DNA from: a virus | Taxonomy: Duplodnaviria > Caudoviricetes | Reading direction: 5' to 3' (one strand) | DNA length: 38,453 nt | Virus record (IMG/VR): IMGVR_UViG_3300044846_002040 | Location: 1 to 38,453 of that record | In this document: piece by piece, positions 14,010 to 36,606 of the stretch | Numbering within the stretch: position 1 is the first letter of the stretch | Layout of the letters: each line of letters opens with the position of its first letter | Translations under genes and position numbers: made by a program | Notes under the pieces: generated by a model | Told to the model about the DNA's origin: nothing | Database searches by the model: none | What the model saw: the letters and a program-made list of their open reading frames with translations, nothing else

Positions 14010-14675
14010 TCAAAACTTACGACTATTTATATTACACATCTCTATTTGATTTATATTTACATGTTTTGGCAGAGATCCAACCCAATAAATTGCGTTTGCT
14101 AAATCTTCTGCAGATAGGGCGTCATCTCTTTTTTGTTCTTGAGTATCGATTGTAGCAGGACAGATTTCAGTTATTTTTATATTATATTCAGGAAATTCTA
14201 ACCTCATCGTGTCCACCAAACCTCTTTGCCCACGTTTAGCATTGGTGTAGTTTCCCCCTCCCCAATAAGGAATCTTTCCACCAAAAGACGTTACAAACAC
14301 AATAGTTGCAGACTCTGACCTTTTTAAACATGGCACAAATAATTGAGATAAATACATTGGCCCTGTTACATTAACATCATATGCCCGTTTAAAATTTTCT
14401 GGAGTTTCATTAATTATTTTTGTAGGACTGACCCCACCTCCAGCATTATTTACTAAAAGATCAATAGTTATATCTTTGTAAGTTTCAAAAAACTTTTCTA
14501 TTTCTGGAAAATCTGTTATATCTAATTTATAAGTTTCAACATTTTCTGAAATTAATTCTGAAATTTTTGATAAGTTTCTGGATACTGCTATAACTTTATA
14601 TCCATTTTCAGATAAAAGTTTTACAGTTGCATATCCAACACCCTTGCTAGCACCAGTTACTATTGCCGTTTTCAC
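14010..14675 (-). CDS. Short-chain dehydrogenase/reductase (YdfG-like)
   Basis: TGASKGVG, NNAG, YTNAK (YxxxK), C-terminal 'EDLANAIYWVGSLPKHVNIN' typical of YdfG clade. Confidence 0.88.
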   Translation of the reverse strand: MKTAIVTGASKGVGYATVKLLSENGYKVIAVSRNLSKISELISENVETYKLDITDFPEIEKFFETYKDITIDLLVNNAGGGVSPTKIINETPENFKRAYDVNVTGPMYLSQLFVPCLKRSESATIVFVTSFGGKIPYWGGGNYTNAKRGQRGLVDTMRLEFPEYNIKITEICPATIDTQEQKRDDALSAEDLANAIYWVGSLPKHVNINQIEMCNINSRKF

Positions 14676-14685
14676 CTATACTGAC

Positions 14686-15303
14686 CTAGTGAATCCAGTG
14701 TTGAGGAACCATTATCTTTTCGCCACTTTTAACTAAGTGTGCTGTATGGTGATACGGTGGTGAAGGAGGAAAAACAATAATACTTCCTGCCTTTGGCTTT
14801 ACATAAAAACTATAATTTCCATTATTTTTTGCTTCTTCAAAATCTGACTCTGGGCTAGGCTGAGTCAATACTCCTTCTGGAGAGGCAATTGTAAAAGAAA
14901 TTTCTCCACCCTCATAATCATCATTTAAGTACATAACAAAAGAAACTTTAAGTCTTTCGTCACCCTCTTGTTGGTCAAAGTGAGCCCCCATGTATGTTCC
15001 AGGCATATATTTTTTAATTGGATACTGAGGGAATAATTTTGGCTCATCTGTAATTCCTTGTGCTTTGGCATAGTCTCTTGCTACATCATCAAATGCTTTT
15101 TGTAATGTTTTATATATATAATCATTTTCTAATGACTCGACAATATTTTTATCTGTTCCATACACATATTCCTGTCCACTACAAGCCATCCACTCACCCC
15201 AAGGATTCTTGTTATCATTTTCAATTGCTTCAACAAGTTTTTTAGGATCTTCTATTACATTTGTGTAATAATAGACTTTTTCTTCAAGTATTTCTTTATC
15301 CAT
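14686..15303 (-). CDS. 2OG-Fe(II) oxygenase, prolyl-4-hydroxylase-like
   Basis: HFD...YLNDDYEGGE...PKAG...H; Lys at 2OG-binding position. Confidence 0.85.
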   Translation of the reverse strand: MDKEILEEKVYYYTNVIEDPKKLVEAIENDNKNPWGEWMACSGQEYVYGTDKNIVESLENDYIYKTLQKAFDDVARDYAKAQGITDEPKLFPQYPIKKYMPGTYMGAHFDQQEGDERLKVSFVMYLNDDYEGGEISFTIASPEGVLTQPSPESDFEEAKNNGNYSFYVKPKAGSIIVFPPSPPYHHTAHLVKSGEKIMVPQHWIH

Positions 15304-15314: not shown

Positions 15315-15974
15315 TTAGTATTTATTTTTAACATAGTGGTCTACTTCTTTTATAAAGCCAACCAAAACATATCTTATTGGTCCCTCACCAACATGTCTTA
15401 CTCCATGCTCATATTTTTCATTTCCTGGAAAAATTAAAAGTTCTCCTGGTTTTGGCCTTAATTCTAAATTAAGATTTTCAAAAAACAGTTCTCCCTTATT
15501 GTAATCATCATTAAGATATAGTATTGTAGCGTATTTAATTGATGGATCAGTATGTTGGTCTGTATGGTGTTTTAGTTCAATTCCAGGCTGCATTCTTTGA
15601 ATAGTAGCAAAACCGCTTAAATGTGTACTTGGGTCTGATTCTACAACCATGTCATTAAGTCTTTTATAAAAAGGCTTATACTCTTTATAATGTGAAATGT
15701 TTAAATTTTTATCAGCCCAGTTTTGAGTAATTTCAAATTTGCCTTCAGCAACAAGATTTTCAACATCATCTCTACCAAATTTTTCCATACAAAATCTTGG
15801 TAAATTTGATAGATATTCCACTTCCCAATCTGCTTGAGATGCTTCATTAATTTTACTCCATATAAAATCTACTTCTTCTTTTAATGGATAGTTTTTAACT
15901 AATAATAACTCTTCTGTTATTTCTTCAAATTCATAATTATTTTTTGCTAATTGTTGCTTAAGGTTATTAATCAT
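15315..15974 (-). CDS. 2OG-Fe(II) oxygenase, prolyl-4-hydroxylase-like
   Basis: HTD...YLNDDYNKGE...PKPG...HGV...R; start ATG 15974 with SD AGGAGA. Confidence 0.85.
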   Translation of the reverse strand: MINNLKQQLAKNNYEFEEITEELLLVKNYPLKEEVDFIWSKINEASQADWEVEYLSNLPRFCMEKFGRDDVENLVAEGKFEITQNWADKNLNISHYKEYKPFYKRLNDMVVESDPSTHLSGFATIQRMQPGIELKHHTDQHTDPSIKYATILYLNDDYNKGELFFENLNLELRPKPGELLIFPGNEKYEHGVRHVGEGPIRYVLVGFIKEVDHYVKNKY

Positions 15975-15975
15975 C

Positions 15976-16722
15976 CTATATCTCCTCTGGTTTATACTTA
16001 TTTCCATACACGTCTATTTTCCACCCTTGCTTAAGCAATTCTTGCCACTCTGCTCTTTCAATTTCTTGTTTTGCTCTGGTTTCTTTCATTTCTGCTGCCC
16101 AGGCATCTCTTAGTTCTTGTGGATATGCATCTTCTTCACGGTCATCCCAAAAAGAACCTATGGTATATCTAACACCATTAGTAATAAGTGTCACTTCATG
16201 CATATTATTAAATCCACCATCAAATGCGGCAAGCGTTCCAACTCTAGGTTGAATATTTAAATCTTGATTTGGAAATTGTAAAAGGCCTCCATCAAAATTA
16301 TCATTTAAATATAAAAATGCTGCATACCTACTTCTAGTAAACGCTCCAGAATTTCCATGTTCATCTGTATTATCAGAATGAATTCTAGCGTAAGCCCCTG
16401 GCTCCCATTTTTGTGTATGATATCCAATTTGACAAATTATTTTTGGATCAAGATCATGAACACTTGCAACTGCATTTATAATTCCTTGTTTAATTTCTGA
16501 AAAAATATTAGGACTAAGACCTTCATTAATAACATCTTCATCATTATCTTTTGGCAATACAGATGAGTAAGATTCATAAAAAGATATAGGCATCCAAGTA
16601 ATTTTACCAGCATCTGCATGTTTGTCTAAAACTTTTATTAATTTTGCACAAGTATCTTCATCTATAAAATTTTCATAAATTACAATATCTTTGGTTAATC
16701 TTTTTTTATTATTTAAATTCAT
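15976..16722 (-). CDS. 2OG-Fe(II) oxygenase, prolyl-4-hydroxylase-like
   Basis: HSD...YLNDNFDGG...HEV...RYT; ATGA overlap with upstream gene. Confidence 0.85.
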   Translation of the reverse strand: MNLNNKKRLTKDIVIYENFIDEDTCAKLIKVLDKHADAGKITWMPISFYESYSSVLPKDNDEDVINEGLSPNIFSEIKQGIINAVASVHDLDPKIICQIGYHTQKWEPGAYARIHSDNTDEHGNSGAFTRSRYAAFLYLNDNFDGGLLQFPNQDLNIQPRVGTLAAFDGGFNNMHEVTLITNGVRYTIGSFWDDREEDAYPQELRDAWAAEMKETRAKQEIERAEWQELLKQGWKIDVYGNKYKPEEI

Positions 16723-17393
16723 GGTTTTCTATCTCCAGTATGTTCTATAATTTCCCAAAAAAATGGACAGGTGTATCGAATACCACTCTTAATCTCTGTT
16801 ACTCCGTGAACATAATTCATATCCCCTGGGAAAAAATATGCTGCACCCTTTTTTGGTTTAAACTGAACACCTTGCAATGGGAAGTATAACTCTCCACCCT
16901 CATAGTCTTCGTTTAAATAAAATAGGCTTGAAAGATCATAGTTTGGAAAATCATTAGGAAGTCCAGCATCTGGACCTTCATGTAATTCTTTATCTGCATG
17001 AGGATTTTGAAATTGTCCTGGAAGCCATCTAACAATAGTTGTGCCAGTAGGAATAACTTTTACCTTATAAAACTCTTCAACAATTGGTTGTAATCTTTGA
17101 AACAATCCAGCAATAACTGGTGCAATTTTAGGATCATTTTTATCTAATGTTGGAGAGGTTGCAACCCTATCTTTCCAATAATCAGAATCGTATACAACTG
17201 TGCCATTTTCATTAACATGTGTTTCTGTTACATCCCATATAGTTATAGACTTAGCAGCCTTTTCTAAGAAATCTATTTCTTCTTGAGTCATAAAGTTTTC
17301 TAACTCAACAATCATTTCTTTACTATTTCCAAACCACCCAGAAGGTGTCATTGAAGGTTTTCTAACTACTACCGATGCCTGCGTTTTGTCCAT
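16719..17393 (-). CDS. 2OG-Fe(II) oxygenase, prolyl-4-hydroxylase-like (leaderless)
   Basis: HAD...YLNEDYEGGE...PKKG...HGV...RYT; TGATATAAT 17400-17408 ends 6 nt before ATG. Confidence 0.87.
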   Translation of the reverse strand: MDKTQASVVVRKPSMTPSGWFGNSKEMIVELENFMTQEEIDFLEKAAKSITIWDVTETHVNENGTVVYDSDYWKDRVATSPTLDKNDPKIAPVIAGLFQRLQPIVEEFYKVKVIPTGTTIVRWLPGQFQNPHADKELHEGPDAGLPNDFPNYDLSSLFYLNEDYEGGELYFPLQGVQFKPKKGAAYFFPGDMNYVHGVTEIKSGIRYTCPFFWEIIEHTGDRKP

Positions 17394-17424: not shown

Positions 17425-17880
17425 CTATAACTCCATCTGTATTTCTAATTGCTTTAAAAATCTATTTGGGTCAAATCTCCAATTATCCTTAGCAAATGAG
17501 GTTACAATTTTAACACATAACTCCTCATAATCTTTTTTATCTAACTTATCTTTAACTGAATGCAACGCCTCGACAGTATCTATATAGTTTTGCCTAACAA
17601 AAGATGGATCTCCAGCATGGTTTCTTCTTAAAATTTTAGTATCAACTTTCCCGTTTGGATAATATAAAGATATTTTTTGATGTTGTTTTGCAAATCCTGC
17701 ATCTTGATACATTTCATATCCCTCTATAGCCTCTTCTAAACTGTAAAAAGATACAATAGACCTTATTGTTTCTTCTTCATCTCTACATACTGTCAATAAA
17801 TAATGATATACTTTTTCATTTTTAATTTTGTTAAGATATTCATTAAGAATATACGTATTTGATGTATTTAATTGACTCAT
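17425..17880 (-). CDS. Hypothetical protein in oxygenase cluster
   Basis: 151 aa; ATGA-coupled to upstream gene; no motif recognised. Confidence 0.7.
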   Translation of the reverse strand: MSQLNTSNTYILNEYLNKIKNEKVYHYLLTVCRDEEETIRSIVSFYSLEEAIEGYEMYQDAGFAKQHQKISLYYPNGKVDTKILRRNHAGDPSFVRQNYIDTVEALHSVKDKLDKKDYEELCVKIVTSFAKDNWRFDPNRFLKQLEIQMEL

Positions 17881-18593
17881 AATGTTGTGTTTGGTAATTT
17901 ATCTTTTACATAAAGTTTTAAAACTTTAACCTCATGATTACCTAAAGACTCTCCCTTTTCATTTATAGCATCCCTATACCAATCAGTCCAACCTCCAGTA
18001 GAATTTATTTTTTGTGCTGCCTCGCCATATGAAATATTTGCATTTGTTCTTAATCTTTCTTCGTCTTTCCATTCTAACATTTCAATTGTAGTATTATTTA
18101 AATTTGTTAAAGATATTGGAATTATAGTTGCTAATGGAGTTCCTGCTTTTATAATTACTCTTTCATTTGCCTTTTTTACTTTAATTGCTAAGGGCAATGG
18201 ATTATCATAAAAAGAAGTACTAATTATATTTGACATTGTTTCAAAATATTCATTAAAATAATTAACTGGATTTATTGTTAAAATACTTATATCGTTATCT
18301 GTTTTAAAAATTAAACTAGTATTGAAACTTATTGATGATTGTCCTCTTCCGCCATAAGCCCCCGAAGGACTAAATATTTCAACATGTTCGCTAGTTTGAT
18401 CATTAATCCCATCCCAAATAAAATCAATATCTTCCAAACAAGAAAGGCTCCAGCCAACAACATTGGCCTGAGTTACTGGGAAACACCTGTATGCATGTTT
18501 TTCTGATGTATTATCCATCCAATCTCTTTTAATTGACATTGGAGTAATAACAAAATTACACCCAGGCATTTTTTCAACTGATATATTTAACAC
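17877..18593 (-). CDS. DUF6065-like protein
   Basis: 'RDWMD...AYRCFPVTQANVVGW' and 'AGTPLATIIPI' motifs. Confidence 0.6.
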   Translation of the reverse strand: MLNISVEKMPGCNFVITPMSIKRDWMDNTSEKHAYRCFPVTQANVVGWSLSCLEDIDFIWDGINDQTSEHVEIFSPSGAYGGRGQSSISFNTSLIFKTDNDISILTINPVNYFNEYFETMSNIISTSFYDNPLPLAIKVKKANERVIIKAGTPLATIIPISLTNLNNTTIEMLEWKDEERLRTNANISYGEAAQKINSTGGWTDWYRDAINEKGESLGNHEVKVLKLYVKDKLPNTTL

Positions 18594-19276
18594 TACTCAT
18601 TGTCCCATTTTGGATCATACATGTCTGGTGTGTGATATTTTTTACTGTAGTCTAACATTGTTACAATAGAATATTTTGTTCCAGAGTGAACGGGCATTGC
18701 CTGATGTGGATACATAAAATTAGAGGGGAATATATAAAGATCTCCAGCCTTTGGTTTAATATTTAAATTCTGCAATCTAAAATACAACTCTCCGCCATCG
18801 TAGTCATCATTAACATATGCAACTAAAGAAACTGTGCAATTATAAGAATACCCATGATCATGATGCTCTTTAAAATGTTGTTTTGGACCATACTTAATAA
18901 AATTAAAAGCCTCCCAATATTTTAATTTCATAATATTGTAGTCTCGTCTATAGTCTTCAACGGCTGCTGCCTGAGCATCGTAAACGTCTTGCCAGAGTTC
19001 CTGTAGTTTTAGTGAATCTTCACTTTTATCTTGTTCTATATCAGTTTTTTTAAATTTAAAATCTACACAATCTCTATAGTCAGGCATTAATTGTTGATAA
19101 CCTACGTATGCTGGCATCCAATGGTATGCTTTTCCTTCTGATGATAACTCTCCATACCCAGCAACAGAACCCAAAGTGCTTTCAAGTCTATTAATTACAT
19201 CAAATTCTTTTTTTATTACTCCACGATAGCAGGTTATTCCCTGTCCAAGACTTTCTTTTTCTGTCCATGTTTGCAT
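18593..19276 (-). CDS. 2OG-Fe(II) oxygenase, prolyl-4-hydroxylase-like
   Basis: HHD...YVNDDYDGGE...PKAG...HQA...KYS; paralogue of 20053-20766 (shared DCVDFK, EAFNF.KY, YNCTVS). Confidence 0.87.
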   Translation of the reverse strand: MQTWTEKESLGQGITCYRGVIKKEFDVINRLESTLGSVAGYGELSSEGKAYHWMPAYVGYQQLMPDYRDCVDFKFKKTDIEQDKSEDSLKLQELWQDVYDAQAAAVEDYRRDYNIMKLKYWEAFNFIKYGPKQHFKEHHDHGYSYNCTVSLVAYVNDDYDGGELYFRLQNLNIKPKAGDLYIFPSNFMYPHQAMPVHSGTKYSIVTMLDYSKKYHTPDMYDPKWDNE

Positions 19277-19285: not shown

Positions 19286-20053
19286 CTATTTATATTCTCT
19301 TTTTGTCCATACTTTACTTTTATATACCCCGCCGTCAGGCTGTCTATAAAAACTTGCATTATTTACCATTTTATCATACATTTCTGATTGATTTAAAATA
19401 TCAATTTCATGTTGCCAATCTTCTCTTTTAAATGGAAGAATTTGTAGATAAGGAGTTCCTGCAGGCAGGGTTCCTTCCCAACCATCTGCAATAAAAAATG
19501 GAAAACTACCTAAAAGATGAACTTTATCTGAATCTACAATACCAGTAGTATTTATAAAAGGTAAGTCAAATCTATTCATGGGCGTCATGAATAAAGCGCT
19601 ATAGCCTTCTGGTAGTTCTATTCCCCAATCTGGCATCCAAGCAAAATGGTTTTTATAAAATCCTTTAGGGTGTTCAAATTGTGGCATTGCTGGCCTTGCG
19701 CTACAAAAATCTTTAAACTTTATATCATCTACCTTAACATCAATTGTGCCTTTAGAATTTTTAAAAAATGTTAAGTCACATGGAGTTTTAAAAGTATATC
19801 CCGTCATAAATGCATCTAGAATTGCTGGACAAGCCTTCCAGGTTGGAATCTTGCCGTAATCATCTTTGGTTCCTGGCTTTGGAAAAGGACAAACCTCTTT
19901 TGGTGCTTTATAATATTCTCCATTTGGCATTTTTGCAAATCTATCTGCATCTTTATACCATTGGGGAATTATGTCTTGTGTTGGAACTGGAACAGAAATA
20001 CTTTTTTTATTTAACCAAGGTCTAAATGATCTAAACTTAACAACTAAAGACAC
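19286..20053 (-). CDS. DUF6065-related / degenerate dUTPase-fold-like protein
   Basis: PQWYK, K.CP..D...GY, PEGYSALF..P.NR, GIVDSD, GTPYLQILPFKR. Confidence 0.55.
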   Translation of the reverse strand: MSLVVKFRSFRPWLNKKSISVPVPTQDIIPQWYKDADRFAKMPNGEYYKAPKEVCPFPKPGTKDDYGKIPTWKACPAILDAFMTGYTFKTPCDLTFFKNSKGTIDVKVDDIKFKDFCSARPAMPQFEHPKGFYKNHFAWMPDWGIELPEGYSALFMTPMNRFDLPFINTTGIVDSDKVHLLGSFPFFIADGWEGTLPAGTPYLQILPFKREDWQHEIDILNQSEMYDKMVNNASFYRQPDGGVYKSKVWTKREYK

Positions 20054-20766
20054 TACTTATGTCCTAATTCATTGATGTCCGTCATAACTACAACACAATA
20101 TTTTGCTCCATTTTTCATTGGCAAAGATGCATGTTCGTAAATATAGTTAGATGGACAAAGCAAGATATCCCCTATTTTTGGAGTATGAGTATAGTTATTA
20201 AATCTTGGAAATCTAATCTCTCCACCTTCATAATCATCATTAATATATATTACTGCAGAAACTGTACAATTATATGCTGGTCCATGATCTGCGTGGATAT
20301 TAAAGTGTTTACCTTCACCCTCATATTTTACAAAATTAAACGCTTCATAATATACTATATGTATTCCCCAATATTTTGCATAATCATCAACACAAAACTT
20401 TAATTTTTGATATATTTCTTCATGTAGATCAAGAAGTTCCGCATTATGCTCATTCCTTAAACCTAAATTTTCTTTTTTATATTTAAAATCAACACAATCT
20501 CTTGCTTTTTTTATTGGTTTTTCTGAGTTTGTAACTGTTGCATCTGACCACTTATATTTACCGCCACTATTTAAATTAGATTCAAGTATTTTTATATATC
20601 TTTCAGAATCTTCTTTTGAAAATACATTTCTGTATAAATTTATACCCAATTCTGGATTTTCAACTACAATATTATTTCCTATAGTTTTTACTGGATATCT
20701 ATTTGTTGATGTTTCTGATCTATCTTTAGTAAACCATGGTATTTGATTTTCATCTTCATATATCAT
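20053..20766 (-). CDS. 2OG-Fe(II) oxygenase, prolyl-4-hydroxylase-like
   Basis: HAD...YINDDYEGGE...PKIG...HAS...KY; start likely ATG 20766 with SD GGAGAT. Confidence 0.87.
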   Translation of the reverse strand: MIYEDENQIPWFTKDRSETSTNRYPVKTIGNNIVVENPELGINLYRNVFSKEDSERYIKILESNLNSGGKYKWSDATVTNSEKPIKKARDCVDFKYKKENLGLRNEHNAELLDLHEEIYQKLKFCVDDYAKYWGIHIVYYEAFNFVKYEGEGKHFNIHADHGPAYNCTVSAVIYINDDYEGGEIRFPRFNNYTHTPKIGDILLCPSNYIYEHASLPMKNGAKYCVVVMTDINELGHK

Positions 20767-20826
20767 ATAAATTATCTCCGTCTCTTTATTATATTGTATC
20801 ATAAAAAAATGTTTTATTTATTAAAC

Positions 20827-20878
20827 AATAAAAGTAATAAAAAATATTTAATTTATATTATTTTTTATTACTTTTATT
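20827..20878. repeat. Perfect 20-bp AT-rich inverted repeat, 12-nt spacer
   Basis: AATAAAAGTAATAAAAAATA (20827-20846) / TATTTTTTATTACTTTTATT (20859-20878). Confidence 0.9.
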
Positions 20879-20928
20879 ATTTTTTTATTTGTTTAAAAAA
20901 AGATTAACCAAACATAATGTTACTGTTC

Positions 20929-21732
20929 TTACTGGAATATAATGTTACCGCCACCGAAACCTGGGAAGAACGGGAAGAATGGTGGGAAGAACGGGAAGAA
21001 TGGTGGGAAGAATGGGAAGAACGGTGGGAAGAATGGGAAGAACGGGAAGAATGGTGGGAAGAACGGGAAGAATGGTGGGAAGAACGGGAAGAATGGTGGG
21101 AAGAATGGGAAGAACGGTGGGAAGAATGGTGGAAAAAATGGAGGAGTAGTTACACTACCTGATGCATTTGAGGTTCCTGAGTTACCATTATCGTTAGTTG
21201 CATAAACTGTATAAGTTTGTGAAGTATTTGCTTCTTGAGTAACATTAACACTTGTTGTTCCTGAACCTACTGTAGCGCCTTTTCCATCAGAAGATGCCCA
21301 AGTATATCCAGTAATTGCTTTACCACCATTTGCAGGGGCAGTCCAAGAAACATTATCATTCAATGCTGAAGTTGTTACGCTTGGTGCAGAAGGTGTTGCT
21401 GGTACTGTAGTTGCTGTAATAGAGTTAGAGGCAGATGAATCAAGTGATGAACCTGATAGGTTATTTCCTTTAACGGTAAATGTATAAGATGTATTGGATT
21501 GCAATCCTTCAATTGTTATAGGTGAAGAAGAGCCAGTTGCTGTATAACCACCTGGTGATGATGTAACTGTAAAAGATGTTGCTGGCGCTCCTGCTCCTTC
21601 AGAAAAGGTTACAGTGGCAGCACCGTTGTTAAATGCACGAGATGTTCCCACATCAGTTGCTGTTCCAATTGTTGGGATGCCAGGAGCACCCTTCGCAGAG
21701 GAACTAATGGTGCCCAGAATATCTGTTGCCAT
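20929..21732 (-). CDS. Tandem fibronectin type III protein with Pro/Phe-only C-terminal repeat tail
   Basis: Two FN3-like units (PGIPTIGTA...GLQSNTSYTFTV; PATPSAP..VSWTAPANGG...YTVYATNDNG) then 61 residues of only P/F. Confidence 0.85.
   Translation of the reverse strand: MATDILGTISSSAKGAPGIPTIGTATDVGTSRAFNNGAATVTFSEGAGAPATSFTVTSSPGGYTATGSSSPITIEGLQSNTSYTFTVKGNNLSGSSLDSSASNSITATTVPATPSAPSVTTSALNDNVSWTAPANGGKAITGYTWASSDGKGATVGSGTTSVNVTQEANTSQTYTVYATNDNGNSGTSNASGSVTTPPFFPPFFPPFFPFFPPFFPFFPPFFPFFPPFFPFFPFFPPFFPFFPPFFPFFPPFFPFFPGFGGGNIIFQ
20962..21144 (-). repeat. Coding tandem repeat, mainly 21-nt units encoding PPFFPFF
   Basis: 61 codons: 27 Pro + 34 Phe as 17 FF dipeptides; Pro codons vary synonymously (CCA/CCG/CCT). 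Confidence 0.95.
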
Positions 21733-21761
21733 TAACCTACCCTTTCCGTTCTTTAATTAAA

Positions 21762-23858
21762 CTAACTAATATCTCCTACAACGTACCAAACATCTGAACC
21801 TTCATATACGCATGTTGCTGAAGAATACTGAGCACGAAGTTTTGGAGCAGTAGCGGTTGCACCAGTGCTTCTAATAGTAACTCCAGAGCCTTGTGCAAAA
21901 GTAACTTGGCCTGCACCTTTTTGAAGAACAGTTATCTGTGATCCAGTTGCGTAAGCAACATCACCTGATGGTGGAATAGTAACTGTAATTGCTGAACCAT
22001 TAGAGGCTGTTACAACTTTTCCAGCATCACCTAAAACAAGTGTGTATGTTGTTCCAGTTTGAGCATTAAGTCCTAGATTAATTTTAGGGGCTGTTAAAGT
22101 TTTGTTTGTTAAGGTTTCTGCTACATCTTTTAACAATGTACCGTTTAGATAAAGTGATTTTCCAGATGCTAAATTAATATGCTCGGAAGATGTCCAAGCG
22201 TCTGTAGCGTCAACCCAGTTAAAGGTTTTATCAGTTGCGCCTTTAAGTGTAATACCACCGCCATCTGCTGTTGTGTCAGTTGGTGATGTTACATCTCCAA
22301 GGATTATATTCTTGTCTTCAACAACTAAATTAGTTGAGTTAATGTTTGTTGTAGTTCCACTTACAGTCAAATCTCCACTAAGTGTTAAATTTGCTGCAGA
22401 TACTGTTCCTGTAAATGTTGGATCTGCTAAAGGTGCTTTGGCAGCAAGATCTGTAGTTAATCCAGAAATTTTAGACTGAGCAATTGCTGCAGAGGCATTA
22501 ATATCTCCATCAACAATAGTTCCATCAGTAATCATTGTGCTTGTAACTGTTCCAGTGTCTCCAGTAGTAACAAAGTTAGAATCTGAAAGAGCAGTATTAA
22601 ATTCGGCTGTTGTTCCGCTTACAGTATTTGTTGCTAAAGAAATAGATTTGTTAGAAAATGTATTTGTTGATGTTGCGCTAACTGTAATATCGGTTGTAAA
22701 AGCAATTGTTCCTGAAGCATCTGGAATTGTAATTGTTCTGTCAGCAGTTGGATCTACAACAGTTAATGTGGTTTCAAAATCATTTGGTGTAGAACCTTCA
22801 AGAACAATGCTTCCATCGGTAATTTGTAGATTGCTTACTAGTGGACTTGTTAGTGTTTTGTTGGTAAGGGTTTGTGTAGCAGTATCAACAACAAGTGTTC
22901 CTGCTGCATCAGGGAATGAAATAGTTATATCAGAGGTTGGATCTCCCGCAGCAAGAGTAAGTTCATGATCGTTTGCTGTAGTACCTTCAAAAACAACTGA
23001 TGTACTTAGTACTCCAACAGAAGTAATATCTGAAAGGTTGCCAGTTGTAATTACTGTACCAGTTACGTCTGGAAGTGTAATAGTACGATCTGCTGTTGGG
23101 TCTTGTGCTTGCACAGTAGTTTCAAATTCATTTGGTGTTGCACCCTCAAATATAATTTGACCAGAAAATACTCCAGTATTAGTAATATCGGACATATTTC
23201 CAGTTGTAATTACTGTACCGCTAGCATCTGGGAAAGTAATTACACGATCTTCAGTTGGATCTCCTGCAGAAAGTGTTAATTCAAAATCATTTGGAGTAGT
23301 TCCTTCCATTGTAATGGTTGAACTAAATATTCCAAGGGCTGTAATATCTGAAAGGTTGCCAGTTGTAATTACTGTACCAGTTACGTCAGGGATTGTAACT
23401 GTACGGTCTGCGGTTGGATCTGTAAATTGAAGAGTAGTTTCAAATGCATTTGCTGTCGCACCTTCCACAACAATTGAACTATCTGAAATTATAAGTCCTG
23501 AAATTGATGGACCTTGTAAAGTTTTATTTGTAAGTGTTTCATGTGTATCACGAAGAACAAGTTGTCCACTTGCATTTGGAATTGTAATTGTGCGATCTTC
23601 GGTTGGATCTTCTACTGATAAAGTAGTTTCATAAGAGTCGGCGGTAGCGCCTTCAAAAGTAATGCTTGTACCAAAAGCAGGATTTGCAGTTGAGTTGGCA
23701 TCAATAAAATAGTCTATGTCTGCCCAGTGATTTGTTCCATCACCAATTTTAAATTTATTTGTGTCTGACTCCCACCCCATTTCACCAGCATTTAATACTG
23801 GATTTGCTGATGTCCATTGAGCCGCAGTACCTCTGCGTTGCTGCATTCTGGTTGCCAT
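21762..23858 (-). CDS. Tail fibre protein with Mtd-N-like N-terminus and six internal repeats
   Basis: RMQQRRGTAAQWTSANPVL..GEMGWESDT.KFKIGDG; 6x EG.T...ET.L...DPT.DR.IT.P; C-terminal KLRAQYSSA...WYVVGDI; promoter TGTTATAAT 23885-23893. Confidence 0.8.
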   Translation of the reverse strand: MATRMQQRRGTAAQWTSANPVLNAGEMGWESDTNKFKIGDGTNHWADIDYFIDANSTANPAFGTSITFEGATADSYETTLSVEDPTEDRTITIPNASGQLVLRDTHETLTNKTLQGPSISGLIISDSSIVVEGATANAFETTLQFTDPTADRTVTIPDVTGTVITTGNLSDITALGIFSSTITMEGTTPNDFELTLSAGDPTEDRVITFPDASGTVITTGNMSDITNTGVFSGQIIFEGATPNEFETTVQAQDPTADRTITLPDVTGTVITTGNLSDITSVGVLSTSVVFEGTTANDHELTLAAGDPTSDITISFPDAAGTLVVDTATQTLTNKTLTSPLVSNLQITDGSIVLEGSTPNDFETTLTVVDPTADRTITIPDASGTIAFTTDITVSATSTNTFSNKSISLATNTVSGTTAEFNTALSDSNFVTTGDTGTVTSTMITDGTIVDGDINASAAIAQSKISGLTTDLAAKAPLADPTFTGTVSAANLTLSGDLTVSGTTTNINSTNLVVEDKNIILGDVTSPTDTTADGGGITLKGATDKTFNWVDATDAWTSSEHINLASGKSLYLNGTLLKDVAETLTNKTLTAPKINLGLNAQTGTTYTLVLGDAGKVVTASNGSAITVTIPPSGDVAYATGSQITVLQKGAGQVTFAQGSGVTIRSTGATATAPKLRAQYSSATCVYEGSDVWYVVGDIS
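23023..23387. repeat. Exact 47-bp direct repeat inside tail fibre gene (23023-23069, 23341-23387)
   Basis: GTAATATCTGAAAGGTTGCCAGTTGTAATTACTGTACCAGTTACGTC twice, 318 bp apart. Confidence 0.9.
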
Positions 23859-24370: not shown

Positions 24371-26497
24371 TTATGCTTCGATATAAGTTTTGCTTACTTT
24401 AACAGCAGTATCTGCTGATGCACCAGTTACCTGAAGAAGAACGTTTCCACTGCTGTAAACAGCGTTAGTTGTTCCTAGTTCAGCATTGCTGATTACATCT
24501 GCATACTCTGTTAAGTAAACGGAATTGTTTCCATCAACTGTAACAAGTAATTCAATTACTTCAATATCATTACCCTTTTTCATTTGTACGATATATTTAG
24601 CACTTGAGTATGTAGTTGCTGACCATGTATCAATTGTTGTTGCTGAAGTTGAAGCGGTAGCAAGAGCAGATCCAAGAAGAACATCTGGAAGAGCAATACT
24701 TGTAGCAGTTGCTGCACCAAGAGTTGGTGTAGTAAAGGTTGGACTGTTAGTAAATGCTACTGTTCCAGATCCTGCTTCATCAGTTAATGCTGATGCAAGG
24801 TTTGCAGAAGATGGAGTTGCAAGGAATGTTGCCACGCCTTCTCCAAGACCTGAAATACCAGTTGCTACTGGAAGACCAGTTGCATTTGTTAAAGTTGCTG
24901 CTGATGGAGTTCCAAGATCAGGAGTTGTTAATGTTGGTGATGTTAGTGTCTTGTTTGTAAGGGTTTGTGTACCTGTTAATGTTACTACAGTTGAATCAAT
25001 ATCAAGAGTGTTTCCAGTCTTGTCTAATCCTGTACCCGCAACAATTTGTCCTAAACCAGTAAACTGAGTAAAGGTAAGTGCTGTAGTTCCAACTGTGATT
25101 GCACCATTATTGGTTAATGTATAACCTTGATCAGCGTTTACAGTTCCTTGTTCTACGAATACTGCAAAGTTTGCAGTAACTTCTGCACCTGAATCTGCAT
25201 CAGTTGAACGATCTGGGGCACCAGATGCCTTAACAACGTAGATACCGTTTTCTGAACCAGTTGACTGATCTTTAACAAGAACACGATCTCCAGTAGCAAG
25301 AGTTACGCCATCAAGGACATCTCCATTTTCAAGATCAGAAGCAAGTGTTACGTTAGCAGTTGTTGCTGCTCGTACAGATGCTTTCCAGTCAATACCTTGT
25401 GCTGCTGAGTCTACATAAGACTTTGTTGCTGCATCTGTTGCATCTGTAGGAGTTCCAAGACCTGTAATCTTGTTTGTACCCATTGCGATTGCGCCAGACA
25501 TTGTTCCACCAGCAAGTGCTAACTTAGCAGCAAGATCTGTTGTAAGATTTGCAATCTTAGACTGAGCGATTGCAGCAGCAGAATTAATGTCTGCATCTAC
25601 AATTGTGTCATTAGCAATCTTTGCTGAGGTTACTGCACCGTCTGCAATTTTTGCTGTTTCTACAGAGTCTGCAGCAAGTTTACCAGCAGTTACGTTAGCA
25701 TCTGTAATCTTTGCTGTGGTTACTGCGCCATCTGCAAGTTTGCCAGTGGTTACGTTTAGGTCTGTAATCTTTGCTGTGGTTACTGCACTATCTGCAATCT
25801 CTGCTGTATTTACAGCACTATCTGCAATCTTAGCATTTGTAACTGAGTTTGCAGCAAGTTTTGCATCTGTTACGTTAGCATCAAGAATCTTTGCAGTTGT
25901 AACTGAGTCTGCAGCCAACTTTGCTGCTGTTACGTTTGAGTCTGTAATCTTTGCAGTTGTAACTGAGTCTGCAGCAAGTTTTGCTTCTGTTACGTTAGCA
26001 TCTGTAATTTTTGCTGTAGTTACTGAATCTGTAGCAAGTTTTGCTGCAGTTACGTTTGCATCTGTAATTTTTACGGTAGTTACTGAATCTGAAGCAAGCA
26101 TTGTTGCTGTAACTGTACCAGTATCACCAGATGTAACTACGGTACCTGTTACGTTAGGAAGTGTAATTGTACGATCTGCTGTTGGGTCTGCAACTGTAAG
26201 AGTTGTCTCGTAGTCATCTGCTGTTGCGCCTTCAAACACAATGCTTGATTCAAAAACACCAACTGCTGCTGGTGCTTTCCAGGCAATTCCATTTGTTGCA
26301 TTTGAGTCTGCAGTAAGAACATAGTTATCGGTTCCAACGGCGAGACGAGTTACTGCGTCTGCAGCAGATGCTACTAGTAAATCACCTTTTGCGTCTACTA
26401 ATGCTTCTGTTAATATATCGTGAGAGTTAACGGTCGCAGTTGATCCTTCAACTACCAGTCCCGCTTTTACTCTAAAATCTTTTGTTACGGTTGCCAT
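24371..26497 (-). CDS. Long tail fibre/virion protein with decamer repeat shaft
   Basis: 708 aa; AKGDLL module, VTxAK repeats, DAATKSYVD, GDRVLVKDQ...ENGIY module; SD AAGGAG. Confidence 0.8.
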   Translation of the reverse strand: MATVTKDFRVKAGLVVEGSTATVNSHDILTEALVDAKGDLLVASAADAVTRLAVGTDNYVLTADSNATNGIAWKAPAAVGVFESSIVFEGATADDYETTLTVADPTADRTITLPNVTGTVVTSGDTGTVTATMLASDSVTTVKITDANVTAAKLATDSVTTAKITDANVTEAKLAADSVTTAKITDSNVTAAKLAADSVTTAKILDANVTDAKLAANSVTNAKIADSAVNTAEIADSAVTTAKITDLNVTTGKLADGAVTTAKITDANVTAGKLAADSVETAKIADGAVTSAKIANDTIVDADINSAAAIAQSKIANLTTDLAAKLALAGGTMSGAIAMGTNKITGLGTPTDATDAATKSYVDSAAQGIDWKASVRAATTANVTLASDLENGDVLDGVTLATGDRVLVKDQSTGSENGIYVVKASGAPDRSTDADSGAEVTANFAVFVEQGTVNADQGYTLTNNGAITVGTTALTFTQFTGLGQIVAGTGLDKTGNTLDIDSTVVTLTGTQTLTNKTLTSPTLTTPDLGTPSAATLTNATGLPVATGISGLGEGVATFLATPSSANLASALTDEAGSGTVAFTNSPTFTTPTLGAATATSIALPDVLLGSALATASTSATTIDTWSATTYSSAKYIVQMKKGNDIEVIELLVTVDGNNSVYLTEYADVISNAELGTTNAVYSSGNVLLQVTGASADTAVKVSKTYIEA
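25604..26113 (-). repeat. 17 x 30-nt coding repeat (VTTAKITDAN / VTAAKLAADS alternation)
   Basis: Counted in translation and visible in DNA. Confidence 0.88.
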
Positions 26498-28837: not shown

Positions 28838-28875
28838 AAAAATACCCTCCTTGCTTTTGGTTTGGAGGGTTTTTA
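28838..28875. terminator. Bidirectional intrinsic terminator between convergent genes
   Basis: ACCCTCC (28844-28850)/GGAGGGT (28864-28870), A-run before and T-run after. Confidence 0.7.
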
Positions 28876-29829
28876 TTTGTCTCGTCTTGGAGGCATCCCA
28901 AGAGATCTATGTTCTACAAATACGTGCGAAACATAATTTGGAATAAACTCTAAATATTTTGTGTCTATTCCAGACTCTATAAAAAACGCAGAAACTTTTT
29001 CTTTTGGAACGTCTAGTTGTCCAGACATCAACATAGAAAGCCTGTTAGTTGATTCTTCAACATGTTTCCAATAAGGTTCTTTTCTGTCGTCTGCCCAAGG
29101 TCTAAGGATTTCTCTTGTTACCGAACCGTTTGCTTGACGGTGTGACTGATTATGAAAAACATCTCTTGTTCCAATAGAGTATATTTTCCAATTTTTTGCA
29201 TAAGTTCTTAATGATAAAGCAAACTCTTCTGTGTTAAAAGATTCTTCATCATTAATTCCAACTTCGTTAACCCATTTTTTAGGTGCAAAAAGATAACAAC
29301 ATGTTGCCCAATATGAACGCACAACTTGATCTATTTCTAATACACTGTATCCTGGAAATTTAAAGCCTGGAATTAATTCAGCAAAAAAAGAACCGTACAT
29401 GGATGATTTGACTATTGCATCAAGATTAATTGCACCGCTTGGCATTATTTCGTAATCTGCTGGGGCATAACAAATAATAAAATTTTCATCATTAATTTTT
29501 AGTTTTTCATATCTTTCAATAGCCATTACATCCCAACCTGGAGATGCATGTGTGTGTGAATCAAACTGTATAAAATAATCATATTCAATATCTACCTGTG
29601 TTGCTAATTCTCTAGCCCAACAAACTCCACCTCTATATTCTGATAAATCAAAATGTCTATAAAATAATTGTTTGTTTGGTATAAAAGATAAGTTATATTG
29701 TTTATTATCTTCTGACACAATAGAAAAATACAATTCTTTTTTATTTTTTGCTTGACTCCACAAAGAAAATATTGTTGAATAAAACTCTGGATCACAATAA
29801 TTTACAACACTGACTAATAGTTTTTTCAT
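28873..29829 (-). CDS. GT-A glycosyltransferase, Skp1-hydroxyproline GlcNAc-transferase (Gnt1/GT60)-like
   Basis: VSVVNYCDPE, GVCWAR, YFIQFDSH...GWD, EE..LS.R.Y...W.IY...H motifs in the family order. Confidence 0.78.
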   Translation of the reverse strand: MKKLLVSVVNYCDPEFYSTIFSLWSQAKNKKELYFSIVSEDNKQYNLSFIPNKQLFYRHFDLSEYRGGVCWARELATQVDIEYDYFIQFDSHTHASPGWDVMAIERYEKLKINDENFIICYAPADYEIMPSGAINLDAIVKSSMYGSFFAELIPGFKFPGYSVLEIDQVVRSYWATCCYLFAPKKWVNEVGINDEESFNTEEFALSLRTYAKNWKIYSIGTRDVFHNQSHRQANGSVTREILRPWADDRKEPYWKHVEESTNRLSMLMSGQLDVPKEKVSAFFIESGIDTKYLEFIPNYVSHVFVEHRSLGMPPRRDK

Positions 29830-30386
29830 TATTTATTTCTTATTTTTGTATATAAATACTGTGGACCTTCAGTAAAAAACCAATGGTTTGGCTCTACATA
29901 AAAAAAGAAAGCATTTGCAACTAAATTTGTTTCTGGATTAGGAAAATCTAGCCTCCAGTGCTCTTGATCATTTCCATAAGATATTACCATGTCGTTTTCT
30001 TCTGGCTGAAACCTTTTTCCCTCTACATAAAAATCCCAGGGTGTTTTATGAAAAATAGTATAATTCATATGATATGTACAAGCATTATCGTCTTTATGTT
30101 TCCACAGTTTTGCTTTATTGGTTTCATAAATACTTATAAGAGACCATGATGGCAAAAGAGTTTCTGATTCAAACTGTTCTTTTGCTAGTGGTAGCAACAT
30201 TTCATGAAATTTCTTTAATGGTTTTATATTTTCTTTAGGATCCCCTTCCCAGATTGTCCACTGATGTCTTCCAAAACTTTCATCAAAGGTAGTTTTGTCT
30301 GTTGACCACAAATACATAGCAAGATTTTGTAATTCTTTATGCTCTTTTTCTGGAAAAATAGTTTTTAACAAATATGGAGATTTCAT
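29829..30386 (-). CDS. 2OG-Fe(II) oxygenase
   Basis: Y.....LWKHKD...C...Y.G....HWR...F.FY; TAATG-coupled to glycosyltransferase. Confidence 0.75.
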   Translation of the reverse strand: MKSPYLLKTIFPEKEHKELQNLAMYLWSTDKTTFDESFGRHQWTIWEGDPKENIKPLKKFHEMLLPLAKEQFESETLLPSWSLISIYETNKAKLWKHKDDNACTYHMNYTIFHKTPWDFYVEGKRFQPEENDMVISYGNDQEHWRLDFPNPETNLVANAFFFYVEPNHWFFTEGPQYLYTKIRNK

Positions 30387-30387
30387 G

Positions 30388-30621
30388 CTACCAATTACCT
30401 ATTGGACATGCTGCCTTTTCTAACTTTGTTTTTGCTGCCATAAAACACCCACATTTTTTGCACTGTTTTGTTAATTTTATTAATTCTGGACATTCCATAC
30501 ATATTGAATATCTGTTATTAGATATTTCTTCAGAAACATAATCTTTTAAATTAACAAGGTGCCAAGGTCTAGTATCTCCAAGATTTTTTTTATATTTTTT
30601 CCAAGCAGATTCTTTTTCCAT
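30388..30621 (-). CDS. Small Cys-rich protein (DUF6171-like)
   Basis: R..IC..CP...QCKKCGCFM..KT.L....CP.G.W; paralogue at 36409-36606. Confidence 0.7.
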   Translation of the reverse strand: MEKESAWKKYKKNLGDTRPWHLVNLKDYVSEEISNNRYSICMECPELIKLTKQCKKCGCFMAAKTKLEKAACPIGNW

Positions 30622-30628
30622 TAAACAA

Positions 30629-30838
30629 TTACCCTTCTATAAAATTATTACCGTCCCATGTCCAACCTACTTTAACATCTAAGTCTGAAGGTATTTCTAC
30701 TATTTTTGGATCAGACTGAAAACCCGCAATAAGTCTTTCTCCAGCGCTTGAATCTTCATTTGTGCTAAACTCACTATCTATTGTAAGTATTGAAAATATA
30801 TCTCCATCAACAATCCCTGCAAATTTTTTAATTGCCAT
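30629..30838 (-). CDS. Small hypothetical protein (GWTWDG..F C-terminus)
   Basis: 69 aa; SD AAGGAGA; promoter TGATATACT 30860-30868. Confidence 0.7.
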   Translation of the reverse strand: MAIKKFAGIVDGDIFSILTIDSEFSTNEDSSAGERLIAGFQSDPKIVEIPSDLDVKVGWTWDGNNFIEG

Positions 30839-30865
30839 ATACTTCTCCTTTTATGTTTAAGTATA

Positions 30866-31414
30866 TCATGCTATACAAATTCCGTTAACCCAACTTCCAC
30901 CCTGGTTACACTGACAATTAAAGCATGCAGCATTTCCACTACAACCATCGGCACATGGTGGTGGTGTTGGTGCAGGTGGAGTTGGTGTTGGTGCAGGTGG
31001 AGTTGGTGTTGGTGCAGGTGGAGTTGGTGTTGGTGCAGGTGGTGTTGGAGTTGGTGCAGGTGGAGTTGGGAAGGATGGGAAAAATGGTGGTGTTGGTACT
31101 GGGGCAACTGGTGTAACTTGATTACTTGATGATGAAAAGTCAGAATCTAAAACAGTATTACTTAACTTTACTGTAAATGTATATGCAGTTCCATTTGATA
31201 ATCCAGTAACTACAATTGGTGATCCAGATCCAGTTTGTGAAATTGAACTAGGAGATGAAACTACTGTATAAGTTAAAGAAGAATCTGGTTTACCCAAATA
31301 TGTTGGTGCTGTAAATGTTACAGACGCTTGCCCATCACCAGCGGTTGCGGTTCCAATTGTTGGTGTTCCTGGTTTACGACCAGCAGATGATAATACGGGT
31401 CCTAGTCTTGACAT
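30866..31414 (-). CDS. Fibronectin type III protein with Pro/Thr-rich stalk and 6-Cys C-terminal knob
   Basis: Start ATG 31414 (TAATG); PGTPTIGTATAG...GLSNGTAYTFTV FN3; TPPFFPSF-(PTPPAPT)x5-PPP-CADGC...CIA. Confidence 0.85.
   Translation of the reverse strand: MSRLGPVLSSAGRKPGTPTIGTATAGDGQASVTFTAPTYLGKPDSSLTYTVVSSPSSISQTGSGSPIVVTGLSNGTAYTFTVKLSNTVLDSDFSSSSNQVTPVAPVPTPPFFPSFPTPPAPTPTPPAPTPTPPAPTPTPPAPTPTPPAPTPPPCADGCSGNAACFNCQCNQGGSWVNGICIA
30956..31090 (-). repeat. Coding tandem repeat, 21-nt units (PTPPAPT x5) preceded by PPFFPSF
   Basis: Five TGCAGG-anchored 21-nt units on + strand. Confidence 0.93.
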
Positions 31415-32136
31415 TATGCAACTAAGTCTCCAAGAACAACCCAAGAGTCGGTGGCACGTTTAATACATACGGCAGATGACCATTGTGCTCTTAATTTTAA
31501 TCCTGGAGTTCCATTTACCGTCGTTGTTCCACCATCTGTTGCTGCTATTGTTACTTGTCCAGAGGTAGTTTGAAGAATTGTAATTTGTGCACCAACTGCA
31601 AAGGCTTGCGCTGCATTTGTTGGAATTGACAATGTTGATGAAGTTGACATTTCAACCATTTTTCCATTATCAGAAAGCACAAGTGTATAAGAAGATCCTT
31701 GTTGATTTATTGAAATGTTTATAACTGGGGCAGTCAATGTTTTATTAGTTAGTGTTGCGGTGTTAGTAAGAGTAACATCTGGGGCTGTCCAGGCTAAGCC
31801 TGATGCCGTTGCAGAGTTGGCTGTTAAAACCGTTCCATTACTTCCAACAGATAAAATAGAAAGTGTATCATTTGCTGAGGCAGAAAGTAGGTCACCTTTA
31901 GCAGCAAAGTCTGTTGCTTTTAATGTTGATCCAATGTCAATAGCAGTTATTTGACTTTGTAAATTATTAATTGTGTAAGCAATAGATGGGTTTACTAAAG
32001 AACCTTCAGAAGCATTTGCGGGGTTATAATTTTCGTCGCCATAATGATATAGGCGTAAGGCTGCTTGAATATCGGCAGCGTTGGACAATCCTGGAATTTT
32101 AGTTGGTACTAATGTACCTATCGATTCTGCTGCCAT
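31414..32136 (-). CDS. Short tail fibre/adaptor protein
   Basis: AKGDLL module; TLTNKTLT; C-terminal KLRAQWSSA...WVVLGDL homologous to that of 21762-23858; promoter 32153-32161; SD GAGGTG. Confidence 0.72.
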   Translation of the reverse strand: MAAESIGTLVPTKIPGLSNAADIQAALRLYHYGDENYNPANASEGSLVNPSIAYTINNLQSQITAIDIGSTLKATDFAAKGDLLSASANDTLSILSVGSNGTVLTANSATASGLAWTAPDVTLTNTATLTNKTLTAPVINISINQQGSSYTLVLSDNGKMVEMSTSSTLSIPTNAAQAFAVGAQITILQTTSGQVTIAATDGGTTTVNGTPGLKLRAQWSSAVCIKRATDSWVVLGDLVA

Positions 32137-35289: not shown

Positions 35290-35403
35290 TTATTCTAGTT
35301 CGTCAAGAGCAATTGGTGGGACAGATGAATGTAAAACTTCACAAATACATTTGTCGCAGCACTGCTTTGGCGGGTCATTGCTTGTAACTTGGTCATCGCT
35401 CAT
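35290..35403 (-). CDS. 37-aa acidic Cys-rich peptide (CCxxCxC) (not in ORF track)
   Basis: MSDDQVTSNDPPKQCCDKCICEVLHSSVPPIALDELE; ATGA overlap with JmjC stop. Confidence 0.55.
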   Translation of the reverse strand: MSDDQVTSNDPPKQCCDKCICEVLHSSVPPIALDELE

Positions 35404-36408: not shown

Positions 36409-36606
36409 ATGGGTGATGACGCTAGGGTTTGGGATTTATTCAATGGTTCTGCCAGAACACCAGAGGAACTTGCCCAATACCGTCTCGAAATTTGTAGTGG
36501 GTGTGAATTCTATAGAAAACGTACAAACCAGTGTGTTAAGTGCGGATGTTTTATGAAGTTGAAGACTACCCTTGAAAAGGCTAAATGTCCTATTGGGAAG
36601 TGGTAG
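36409..36606 (+). CDS. Small Cys-rich protein (DUF6171-like), leaderless
   Basis: RLEICSGC...QCVKCGCFM..KT.L..AKCPIGKW; TATAAT 36397-36402 ends 6 nt before ATG 36409. Confidence 0.72.
   Translation: MGDDARVWDLFNGSARTPEELAQYRLEICSGCEFYRKRTNQCVKCGCFMKLKTTLEKAKCPIGKW

Follow-up and report, generated by a model that had tools for sequence, protein, structure and literature searches.

A phage protein with a strict proline/phenylalanine tail as a putative fibre-borne substrate of neighbouring oxygenases

Few "auxiliary" genes that still lack an explanation are as common in aquatic phages as tandem 2-oxoglutarate/iron (2OG/Fe) oxygenases. The tandem dioxygenase array of Synechococcus phage Syn9 was read by Iyer et al. 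(2010) as metabolite biosynthesis, and the available part of that paper proposes no substrate beyond metabolites for it and predicts that the tail-collar or collagen-like proteins encoded in dioxygenase operons of bacteria are hydroxylated and sulfated (PMC2938197). The prolyl 4-hydroxylase (P4H) of chlorovirus PBCV-1 (PDB 5c5t) is a second precedent, in which a small virus-encoded enzyme is found together with Pro-rich viral sequence. Here we analysed the IMG/VR virus record IMGVR_UViG_3300044846_002040 (Duplodnaviria; Caudoviricetes; positions 1 to 38,453, the whole 38,453-nucleotide stretch being called the window), a tailed-phage fragment with genes for a portal, a prohead protease, a major head protein, a class II ribonucleotide reductase and fibres. 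It encodes a protein, here called the carrier, in which two fibronectin type III (FN3) domains precede a tract made of proline and phenylalanine only (the P/F tract), and a cassette with six oxygenase genes follows. From gene content and order we propose, at a probability of roughly 0.55, that the carrier is a fibre-borne virion appendage whose tract would be hydroxylated by the two nearest oxygenases, OG0a and OG0b (together OG0).

The locus resembles the Syn9 array in its tandem, divergent 2OG/Fe oxygenases. The Syn9 type of array also has Trp halogenases and a conserved-Cys protein described as dUTPase-fold, to which the X0/DUF6065 proteins here, with an invariant Cys, may or may not correspond. 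Neither an FN3-aromatic-repeat protein nor cassettes matched to a repeat alphabet appear in the available description of Syn9. The PBCV-1 P4H, which the OG0 profile matches at E 1.3e-3, is one enzyme of an algal virus with no gene-order link, whereas the phage cassette described here comprises up to six oxygenases and is tied to one aromatic polymer. On the fibre side, the closest systems are the branched receptor-binding proteins (T4 gp10, CBA120 TSP4, and the branching domain of Klebsiella KP32/KP34 with its conserved peptide), in which, according to the available part of the source, a gp9/gp10-type fibre end is likewise followed by a gene with a class-specific N-terminal peptide (PMC13352976). 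They differ in that docking there is proven for XD2/XD3 while the C-terminal domain here is XD1-like, and in that the putative partner here is FN3 plus polymer and not a depolymerase. Some relatives of the carrier bear PF13884 (S74) or an intein-like (Hint) domain right after the repeat, as do S74 spikes and fibres and bacterial Hint proteins, but the window protein has neither and retains a decayed S74 peptide only, and in six loci the chaperone is split. Extensins and the hydroxyproline-GlcNAc of Skp1 also combine Pro-rich rods with P4H and a glycosyltransferase, and PF11397 lies behind the second, PTPPAPT-bearing module of the window, but those systems are eukaryotic and without a P/F polymer, the link being one of analogy. 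In the open-access literature covered, including the available text of PMC12379486, the FN3-aromatic-repeat family is undescribed; subscription papers lie outside this coverage, and the supplement of PMC2938197 may list related genes. This analysis worked out the fold of the fibre end, the gene set that goes with each alphabet, the match between Lys and a GNAT-like gene, and the decayed S74 peptide.

A preliminary description of the window, made from the sequence alone, had reported a 61-residue tail of Pro and Phe only, and translation confirmed it: the tract holds 27 Pro and 34 Phe in nine PPFF and eight PFF units plus a final Pro, opens with (PPFF)3, has every Phe paired as FF, and is followed by GFGGGNIIFQ and the stop. 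The two FN3 domains placed ahead of it were also recovered, with PF00041 matching two stretches of the carrier (34.7 bits against a cut-off of 25) and a fold search with the carrier model returning FN3 tandems. The AlphaFold model is confident over approximately residues 11-200 (means of 10-residue blocks 77-98), while the tract has a model confidence (pLDDT) of 51-63 and no secondary structure. As a measure of chance, shuffling the window proteome 2000 times gave P/F runs no longer than 10, and shuffling the carrier itself 20000 times gave none longer than 11. The tract contains no Gly and so lacks the collagen-like Gly at every third residue, which the (GAF)n relatives, unlike the window tract, do show. 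Two plus-strand open reading frames (20917-21162 and 20942-21205) are probably shadows of the repeat. Scans for promoters and terminators stayed at chance level (44 vs 46.1 and 3 vs 5.0, respectively). Sequence words of positions 19500-22500 were 85-98% present in 24 listed lake-water runs, 11 of them possibly the source sample, and no RNA run among the listed sequencing runs carried the region.

Purifying selection acts on the tract. In six close genes (the window, L004, L005, L009, L011 and L013), which have the order of PPFF and PFF units in common, 24 of the 57 tract codons compared (197-253) varied synonymously only, one varied from F to Y, and no indel was found; over 196 FN3 codons of the same genes the counts were 54 synonymous-only and 26 non-synonymous. 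Between the window and L004 alone, the tract differed by 18 synonymous and 0 non-synonymous changes. The suggestion that synonymous variation of the Pro codons (CCA 19, CCG 7 and CCT 1 in the window tract) reflects selection on the protein is thereby borne out. Among 73 distinct tracts of 21-181 residues, the unit is P(P)-[F/Y]-F, with 1448 FF, 85 YF and one single F as aromatic runs, no FY or FFF, and 740 P, 730 PP and three PPP as Pro runs; the copy number of the longer tracts is open to mis-assembly, because many related contigs start within the repeat. The preference for TTC despite an AT-rich genome, also noted at the outset, is real and general: TTC makes up 32/34 Phe codons in the window tract against 46/489 across the 47 other window reading frames counted, and 785/939 in 28 P/F tracts against 1193/6156 in neighbouring genes. 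Its explanation appears ordinary, however, namely avoidance of T-runs together with use of a high-expression codon, since TTT-TTT encodes 10 of the 417 FF pairs and TTC also prevails in the capsid gene (10/14).

A search with the FN3 part gave 1475 homologues at E 1e-10, of which 120 were inspected, and three FN3-based scans plus one oxygenase-based scan gave 302 loci with 192 distinct FN3 cores. The layout is constant, running from a fibre gene through the FN3 carrier, an aromatic repeat, a variable tip and helpers to the enzyme cassette and a reductase or portal region. The repeat slot is filled by one of several alphabets, P(P)FF, GFSPF or FTPY, (GAF)n or (YNF)n, which have in common an aromatic residue, Phe or Tyr, every two to three positions, and do not share Pro. 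The P/F tract is kept without indel in the six close genes and is replaced by other alphabets in relatives.

The type of tract and the genes behind it covary. A total of 137 FN3 cores from the FN3-based scans, each with at least 3 kb downstream, were clustered at 90% identity into 100 clusters; second-site copies and short contigs were excluded, and L146 and L171 were classed as GFSP-type after their sequences had been read. OG0 lay behind 28/28 P/F tracts and behind 1/72 other tails, and X0, DUF6065 and OG1 each lay behind 26 of the 28. The oxygenase-like family c30 was found behind 46/56 GFSPF/FTPY-type and 2/2 YNF tails, and X2, alone, behind 12/12 GAF tails; a DUF6065-type gene or c30 was present in 100/100 clusters. 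Conversely, 74 of 76 new loci picked by OG0a, which are close relatives and non-independent, hold a P/F/Y run of at least 14, and the two misses have less than 700 bases upstream. The pairing of tract and OG0 persists though the DNA between them (Hint, S74 and Cys tips with their helpers) turns over. The P/F label changes eight times on the FN3 tree. A tree of three genes lying 3-5 kb upstream, available for 65 of the 100 clusters, gives 11 label changes, at least six of them forced, and all six independent pairs agree (p 0.03). Among 25 long records picked by tail type, both OG0 paralogues were found in 11/11 P/F-type records (E 2e-39 or better), while neither they nor DNA for PPFFPPFF occurred in any of the 14 other-type records. 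Distant second P/F genes occurred in 4/11 P/F-type records and 0/14 others (p 0.026), three of the four without an oxygenase behind.

Single residues and tips have their own matching genes. A GNAT-like gene accompanied a Lys just before a Ser-type Hint start in 13/16 cases against 0/42 (six rows without the motif were excluded, and the three misses were misplaced by the pattern); 8/17 members of this family match PF00583 weakly. Of six split-S74 tips, five have a GT32-like gene behind them, which in two loci forms a fusion with OG0a (L004:4074-5612, 83% identity; L013:3212-4750, 73% identity). Behind the shortest, Tyr-rich tracts stand merely OG0, X0 and one gene without a Pfam match, whose motif we take to be sulfotransferase-like. 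As separate observations, candidate sulfotransferase-like genes lie inside cassettes (L049:5504-6217, L216:2426-3142, L162:11707-12507), in L036-type loci beside Tyr-rich tracts; the GNAT-like gene (L113:11254-11772 and 15 similar loci) is present only if Lys precedes the Ser-type Hint start; (GAF)n tails (L105, L113, L118, L143 and others), with Gly at every third residue, always have a Hint-like end and a single DUF6065-type gene; at L199:7923-9610 a tandem pair of FN3 genes, both ending in (YNF)n, is accompanied by a single c30 gene; and some cassettes carry radical SAM/SPASM and glutathione-peroxidase-like inserts (L014:13458-14393, L077:14936-15781), those of the glutathione-peroxidase kind mostly with Cys tips.

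The presence of six oxygenases near the tract stands, PF13640 being over cut-off in each; they lie in tandem within 6.1 kb, fall into five subgroups at 45% identity, and all retain HxD and the distal H. The idea that all six act on the tract is unsupported, as only the two nearest track it completely. In 17 aligned OG0 members, H170, D172, H224 and K234 are invariant. Against solved structures, the OG0 profile matched the B. anthracis P4H best (E 2.4e-7), followed by the lysyl hydroxylase LH3, a chlorovirus P4H and PiuC, weak matches that leave the substrate unfixed; the nearest annotated relatives are cyanophage oxygenases, 26-38% identical. When PDB sequences were searched with profiles built from X0/DUF6065, from c30 (the oxygenase-like family of the GFSPF type) and from the GNAT-like family, no significant match emerged, and the Pfam scan of the window gave no halogenase match.

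To place the carrier on the virion, the gene upstream of it is informative. In 94 of the 97 clusters with an upstream gene (93 loci and the window), this gene ends in the same 105-residue domain, whose model (pLDDT 93.8) matched the terminal part of the capsid spike of Pa223 (96 residues aligned, rmsd 1.8, Z 13.9), a baseplate chain of gp10 type (Z 11.1), residues 79-180 of TSP4 (92 residues aligned, rmsd 2.7, Z 10.2), which is XD1 and not the docking XD2/XD3, and domains of CpaA and StcE (Z 9.1 and 6.8). Homologues with 47% identity stand at the ends of Gordonia phage minor tail proteins. The carrier family has the short, group-specific N-terminal peptide of branched receptor-binding proteins, and its three N-peptide classes track three classes of fibre end (24/24, 4/4 and 60/67). 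In the available part of PMC8825819, TSP4 80-178 is XD1, a trimeric spacer both of whose termini are argued to be occupied, and the proven docking sites are XD2/XD3. The XD1-like domain of the fibre here is C-terminal, and one face would therefore be free; by analogy, the N-peptide may dock on this fibre end. Separately, G016 and G025 show the same fibre-end type or neighbouring gene, followed by PASTA-P/F-Cys and (PT)n-P/F-Cys proteins.

Four kinds of tip occur behind the repeat: short ones, Cys-rich ones, Hint-like ones, and S74 chaperones that are either whole or split. A whole chaperone is present in P0032 (PF13884 at 48.7 bits, over cut-off), P0071, P0091 and P0098, and 14/120 inspected homologues terminate in a split-S74 peptide. 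In 6/6 split loci, an in-frame Ser..Arg-Phe-Lys peptide is followed by a separate gene with its own start. At these loci (L004:3640-4015, L012, L013, L014, L131, L256) the FN3 protein keeps the peptide with the catalytic Ser..Lys, and the split-off body would act in trans. A programmed frameshift into the second gene was rejected, as the frames differ among the six loci and the second gene is self-starting. S74 domains help trimer folding of spikes and fibres and then self-cleave, according to the available part of PMC6872550, which suggests a trimeric product here. The window carrier has no in-frame Ser-x-x-Arg-x-Lys start, and only an out-of-frame remnant is left: the DNA around its stop aligns with the split-S74 peptide of L004 at a score of 55 (0/2000 shuffles as high), whereas nine other loci scored 18-27, two of these also with low p in an AT-rich stretch. 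This remnant reads YSS-KNS in another frame, and the second gene of the split chaperone is missing at the window locus. The current tip therefore appears to be recent and overprinted on a decayed chaperone peptide.

Given these observations, the following mechanism is proposed. The 14-residue N-terminal peptide would bind the trimeric XD1-like C-terminal domain of the fibre, and the FN3 pair would form a rigid spacer. The tract may form an extended rod of aromatic character; since relatives terminate in the S74 trimerisation chaperone, whole or split, this rod is probably part of a trimer. OG0a and OG0b, with the DUF6065-type proteins, would modify the tract by Pro hydroxylation before display, and in some relatives the fused glycosyltransferase would extend the hydroxyl. 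Since the tip of the window protein seems vestigial, the tract itself would be the exposed end. The appendage, likely a minor component of the virion at the end of the fibre, would form an exchangeable surface module, with tract, tip and enzymes passing as one unit among close phages; because receptor-binding modules are exchanged in the same way, it would most likely determine how the phage adheres to particles or to the surface of its actinobacterial host. The earlier proposal of a virion-displayed polymer modified by its neighbours is in this form the best-supported reading, by gene order, fibre-end fold and covariation, and is one that we infer. The substrates predicted by Iyer et al. in the available text count in its favour.

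Several points weigh against hydroxylation of a fibre-borne tract by OG0. In the closest precedent, hydroxyproline was undetected in purified PBCV-1 virion proteins, as reported in the available part of PMC7019647. The weak OG0 matches include LH3 and PiuC, which are non-proline hydroxylases, and the GT32 match is under the Pfam cut-off. The FN3 tree gives just three independent pairs on well-supported branches, and although all three agree, p is 0.25. All 14 non-P/F records contain 2-8 further P4H-like genes, which are thus common whatever the tail. Since the tract adjoins the cassette and one recombination swaps both, the covariation could be linkage alone, as could the match between N-peptide and fibre end. 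The fibre-end domain is XD1-like, and XD1 in T4 gp9/gp10 and TSP4 is a spacer and not a proven docking site (PMC8825819, available part). Finally, Pro-free (GAF)n and (YNF)n tails occupy the same slot, and proline modification is therefore not needed for the function of the slot.

An unmodified hydrophobic P/F stalk or adhesin on the virion, with oxygenases that act elsewhere (on a metabolite, on host or on other phage proteins) and co-travel in one island, is the best-surviving alternative, though we consider it unlikely. It would fit the adjacency of tract and cassette, the occurrence of further P4H-like and DUF6065-like genes in other parts of these genomes, the Pro-free tails, the interpretation of the Syn9 array as secondary-metabolite biosynthesis and the missing hydroxyproline of PBCV-1. 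What it leaves unaccounted for is that OG0 is kept in all P/F clusters despite frequent replacement of the intervening DNA, that distant P/F genes are confined to OG0-bearing records, that a GNAT-like gene matches a single Lys at the Hint junction, and that the other alphabets carry gene sets of their own.

A different view takes the tract as merely a tether for a functional tip, a Cys knot or Hint-released end, and the window gene as a tip-less remnant on its way out. Among 83 distinct P/F-type tips, 45 are Cys-rich, and a dedicated small gene follows 41 of these 45 against 0/38 other P/F-type tips; the overprinted S74 peptide and the loss of the chaperone's second gene in the window point the same way. 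However, 20 of the 83 tips are short, the window tract is under purifying selection relative to L004, and the same tip-less form occurs in three other assemblies with the cassette intact, which makes this view improbable.

Antamanide (MSDIN) and cyclolinopeptide A (an orbitide) contain the PPFF tetrapeptide, and both are cut from short precursors by S9 peptidases. The preliminary description had accordingly raised the possibility of a multi-core precursor of ribosomally synthesized and post-translationally modified peptides (RiPPs), cut and cyclised to peptides of this kind, and the PPFF units with their strict grammar, the many tailoring-type enzymes, the self-cleaving Hint or S74 ends of relatives and a weak likeness between one window oxygenase and YhhC, an enzyme of a RiPP pathway (at E 4e-4, well short of the cut-off), could be read in this way. 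The idea proved weak and is very improbable. No S9 peptidase is encoded here: PF00326 was found in 0/11 long P/F-type records, seven of them at least 90% complete, against a control that was positive in 13/14 genomes, although a host enzyme is possible. There is no spacer or recognition sequence between units, and the tips are unrelated among close relatives. Instead of a short precursor, the gene encodes a 267-residue protein with two folded FN3 domains behind a fibre gene, the tract varies from 21 to 181 residues, and PPFF-free alphabets occupy the same slot. Among 42 window proteins no Pfam match to a RiPP recognition element or leader peptidase was found, no dedicated search of whole records having been made. 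An artefact of assembly, which the preliminary description had named as a way to refute it, or a neutral microsatellite that happens to be translated might be suspected from breaks of related contigs within the repeat, but both are hardly conceivable, since identical tract DNA occurs in three further assemblies (IMG/VR contigs L001, L002 and L003), variation is synonymous-only and the family, with its 1475 FN3 homologues, is on the scale of thousands.

If hydroxylation by OG0 is true, phages tailor virion surface peptides as eukaryotes tailor collagen and extensin, such oxygenase genes are not metabolic auxiliaries, and the host range of lake actinophages hinges on post-translational chemistry; OG0 enzymes would also be new tools for Phe-rich, Pro-rich polymers. 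Because the candidate substrate and the two enzymes can be named, and the other alphabets with their enzymes serve as natural negative controls, the question is testable in E. coli without phage culture. A wider reading, which we hold to be possible if doubtful, is that freshwater actinophages carry a combinatorial "peptide-coat code", in which a fibre-docked FN3 carrier would display strict polymers (P(P)FF, GFSPF, GAF, YNF), each with matched oxygenases and transferases, with single-residue helpers (GNAT for the terminal Lys, a hydroxylase-fused glycosyltransferase, a sulfotransferase-like gene with Tyr-rich tracts) and with self-cleaving Hint or split-S74 caps. The modified polymer would then be a ribosomal, RiPP-like surface ligand that sets host range, and the long-sought target of the 2OG-oxygenase arrays of phages.

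The family has many members in freshwater phages of about 100 kb, most of which bear WhiB. Of 26 related records, 23 carry this marker of actinobacterial hosts; one of the 23 is G021, which has an OG0b 100% identical to that of the window. The host is therefore inferred to be actinobacterial. Among 50,697 annotated phage records, tblastn with the FN3 part gave no match, and hence no cultured member; an Atlas search of the tail gave leads all below 0.9. In a pattern scan of 185,579 prokaryote species genomes, four stretches were found, all on contigs of metagenome-assembled genomes bearing the same phage cassette; they are read as mis-binned phage DNA, and the exact pattern would overlook divergent tracts. 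The features of the window are collected in Table 1.

Table 1. Positions of the fibre, carrier, cassette and second-module features in the window
Feature	Position	Strand	Basis or remark
Tail fibre, 698 aa, Mtd_N start, directly upstream of carrier	21762..23858	-	Pfam, neighbourhood
C-terminal XD1-like domain of fibre (T4 gp9/gp10, TSP4, Pa223 capsid spike)	21765..22079	-	model, fold search
FN3-FN3-(P/F tract) protein (carrier)	20929..21732	-	267 aa; open reading frame, Pfam, AlphaFold model
N-terminal peptide, aa 1-14	21691..21732	-	low model confidence; putative docking peptide; class tracks upstream fibre-end class
FN3 domain 1, about aa 16-110	21403..21687	-	Pfam, model, fold search
FN3 domain 2, about aa 112-196	21145..21399	-	Pfam, model, fold search
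P/F-only tract, 61 residues (aa 197-257), 17 units P(P)FF + P	20962..21144	-	translation
Tip GFGGGNIIFQ	20932..20961	-	short; conserved only among identical contigs
Decayed N-half of split S74 chaperone	20872..20939	-	out of frame, extends past stop; local alignment score 55 with L004
P4H-like 2OG/Fe oxygenase OG0a	20053..20802	-	PF13640; HxD..H, Lys-type; GT32-like fusion in L004, L013
DUF6065-like protein X0	19286..20053	-	invariant Cys and Trp
P4H-like 2OG/Fe oxygenase OG0b	18593..19276	-	PF13640; HxD..H, Lys-type
DUF6065 protein	17877..18593	-	Pfam
151-aa protein, optional cassette member	17425..17880	-	Pfam scan, locus comparison
2OG/Fe oxygenase OG1	16719..17393	-	PF13640
2OG/Fe oxygenase OG2	15976..16722	-	PF13640
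2OG/Fe oxygenase OG4	15315..16007	-	PF13640
2OG/Fe oxygenase OG3	14686..15303	-	PF13640
Short-chain dehydrogenase, closes cassette	14010..14675	-	Pfam, locus comparison
Second fibre-type protein, same XD1-like end (46% identical)	31414..32136	-	sequence comparison
Second appendage gene: one FN3, one PPFF unit, (PTPPAPT)5, six-Cys tip	30866..31414	-	translation, repeats
Second-module helpers: 69-aa protein, DUF6171, probable oxygenase, PF11397 GlcNAc-type glycosyltransferase	28873..30838	-	Pfam

The second module (28873-32136, minus strand) is a candidate hydroxyproline-glycosylation set. Elsewhere in the window, 60-bp and 30-bp tandem repeats at 25641-26098 (minus strand) encode the pentapeptide-like shaft of a 708-residue fibre, and a short collagen-like protein (PF01391) at 33151-33882 (minus strand) may be a further hydroxylase substrate. 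A JmjC-type oxygenase (35400-36002, minus strand) and a third DUF6065-like gene (36585-37340, plus strand) lie outside the cassette. P/F blocks also occur on other carriers (L303:2355-3416 and L304:2558-5112, both on the minus strand), and such carriers include proteins with a PASTA-like N-terminus, several P/F blocks and a Cys tip, as well as long (PT)n proteins with Cys knots.

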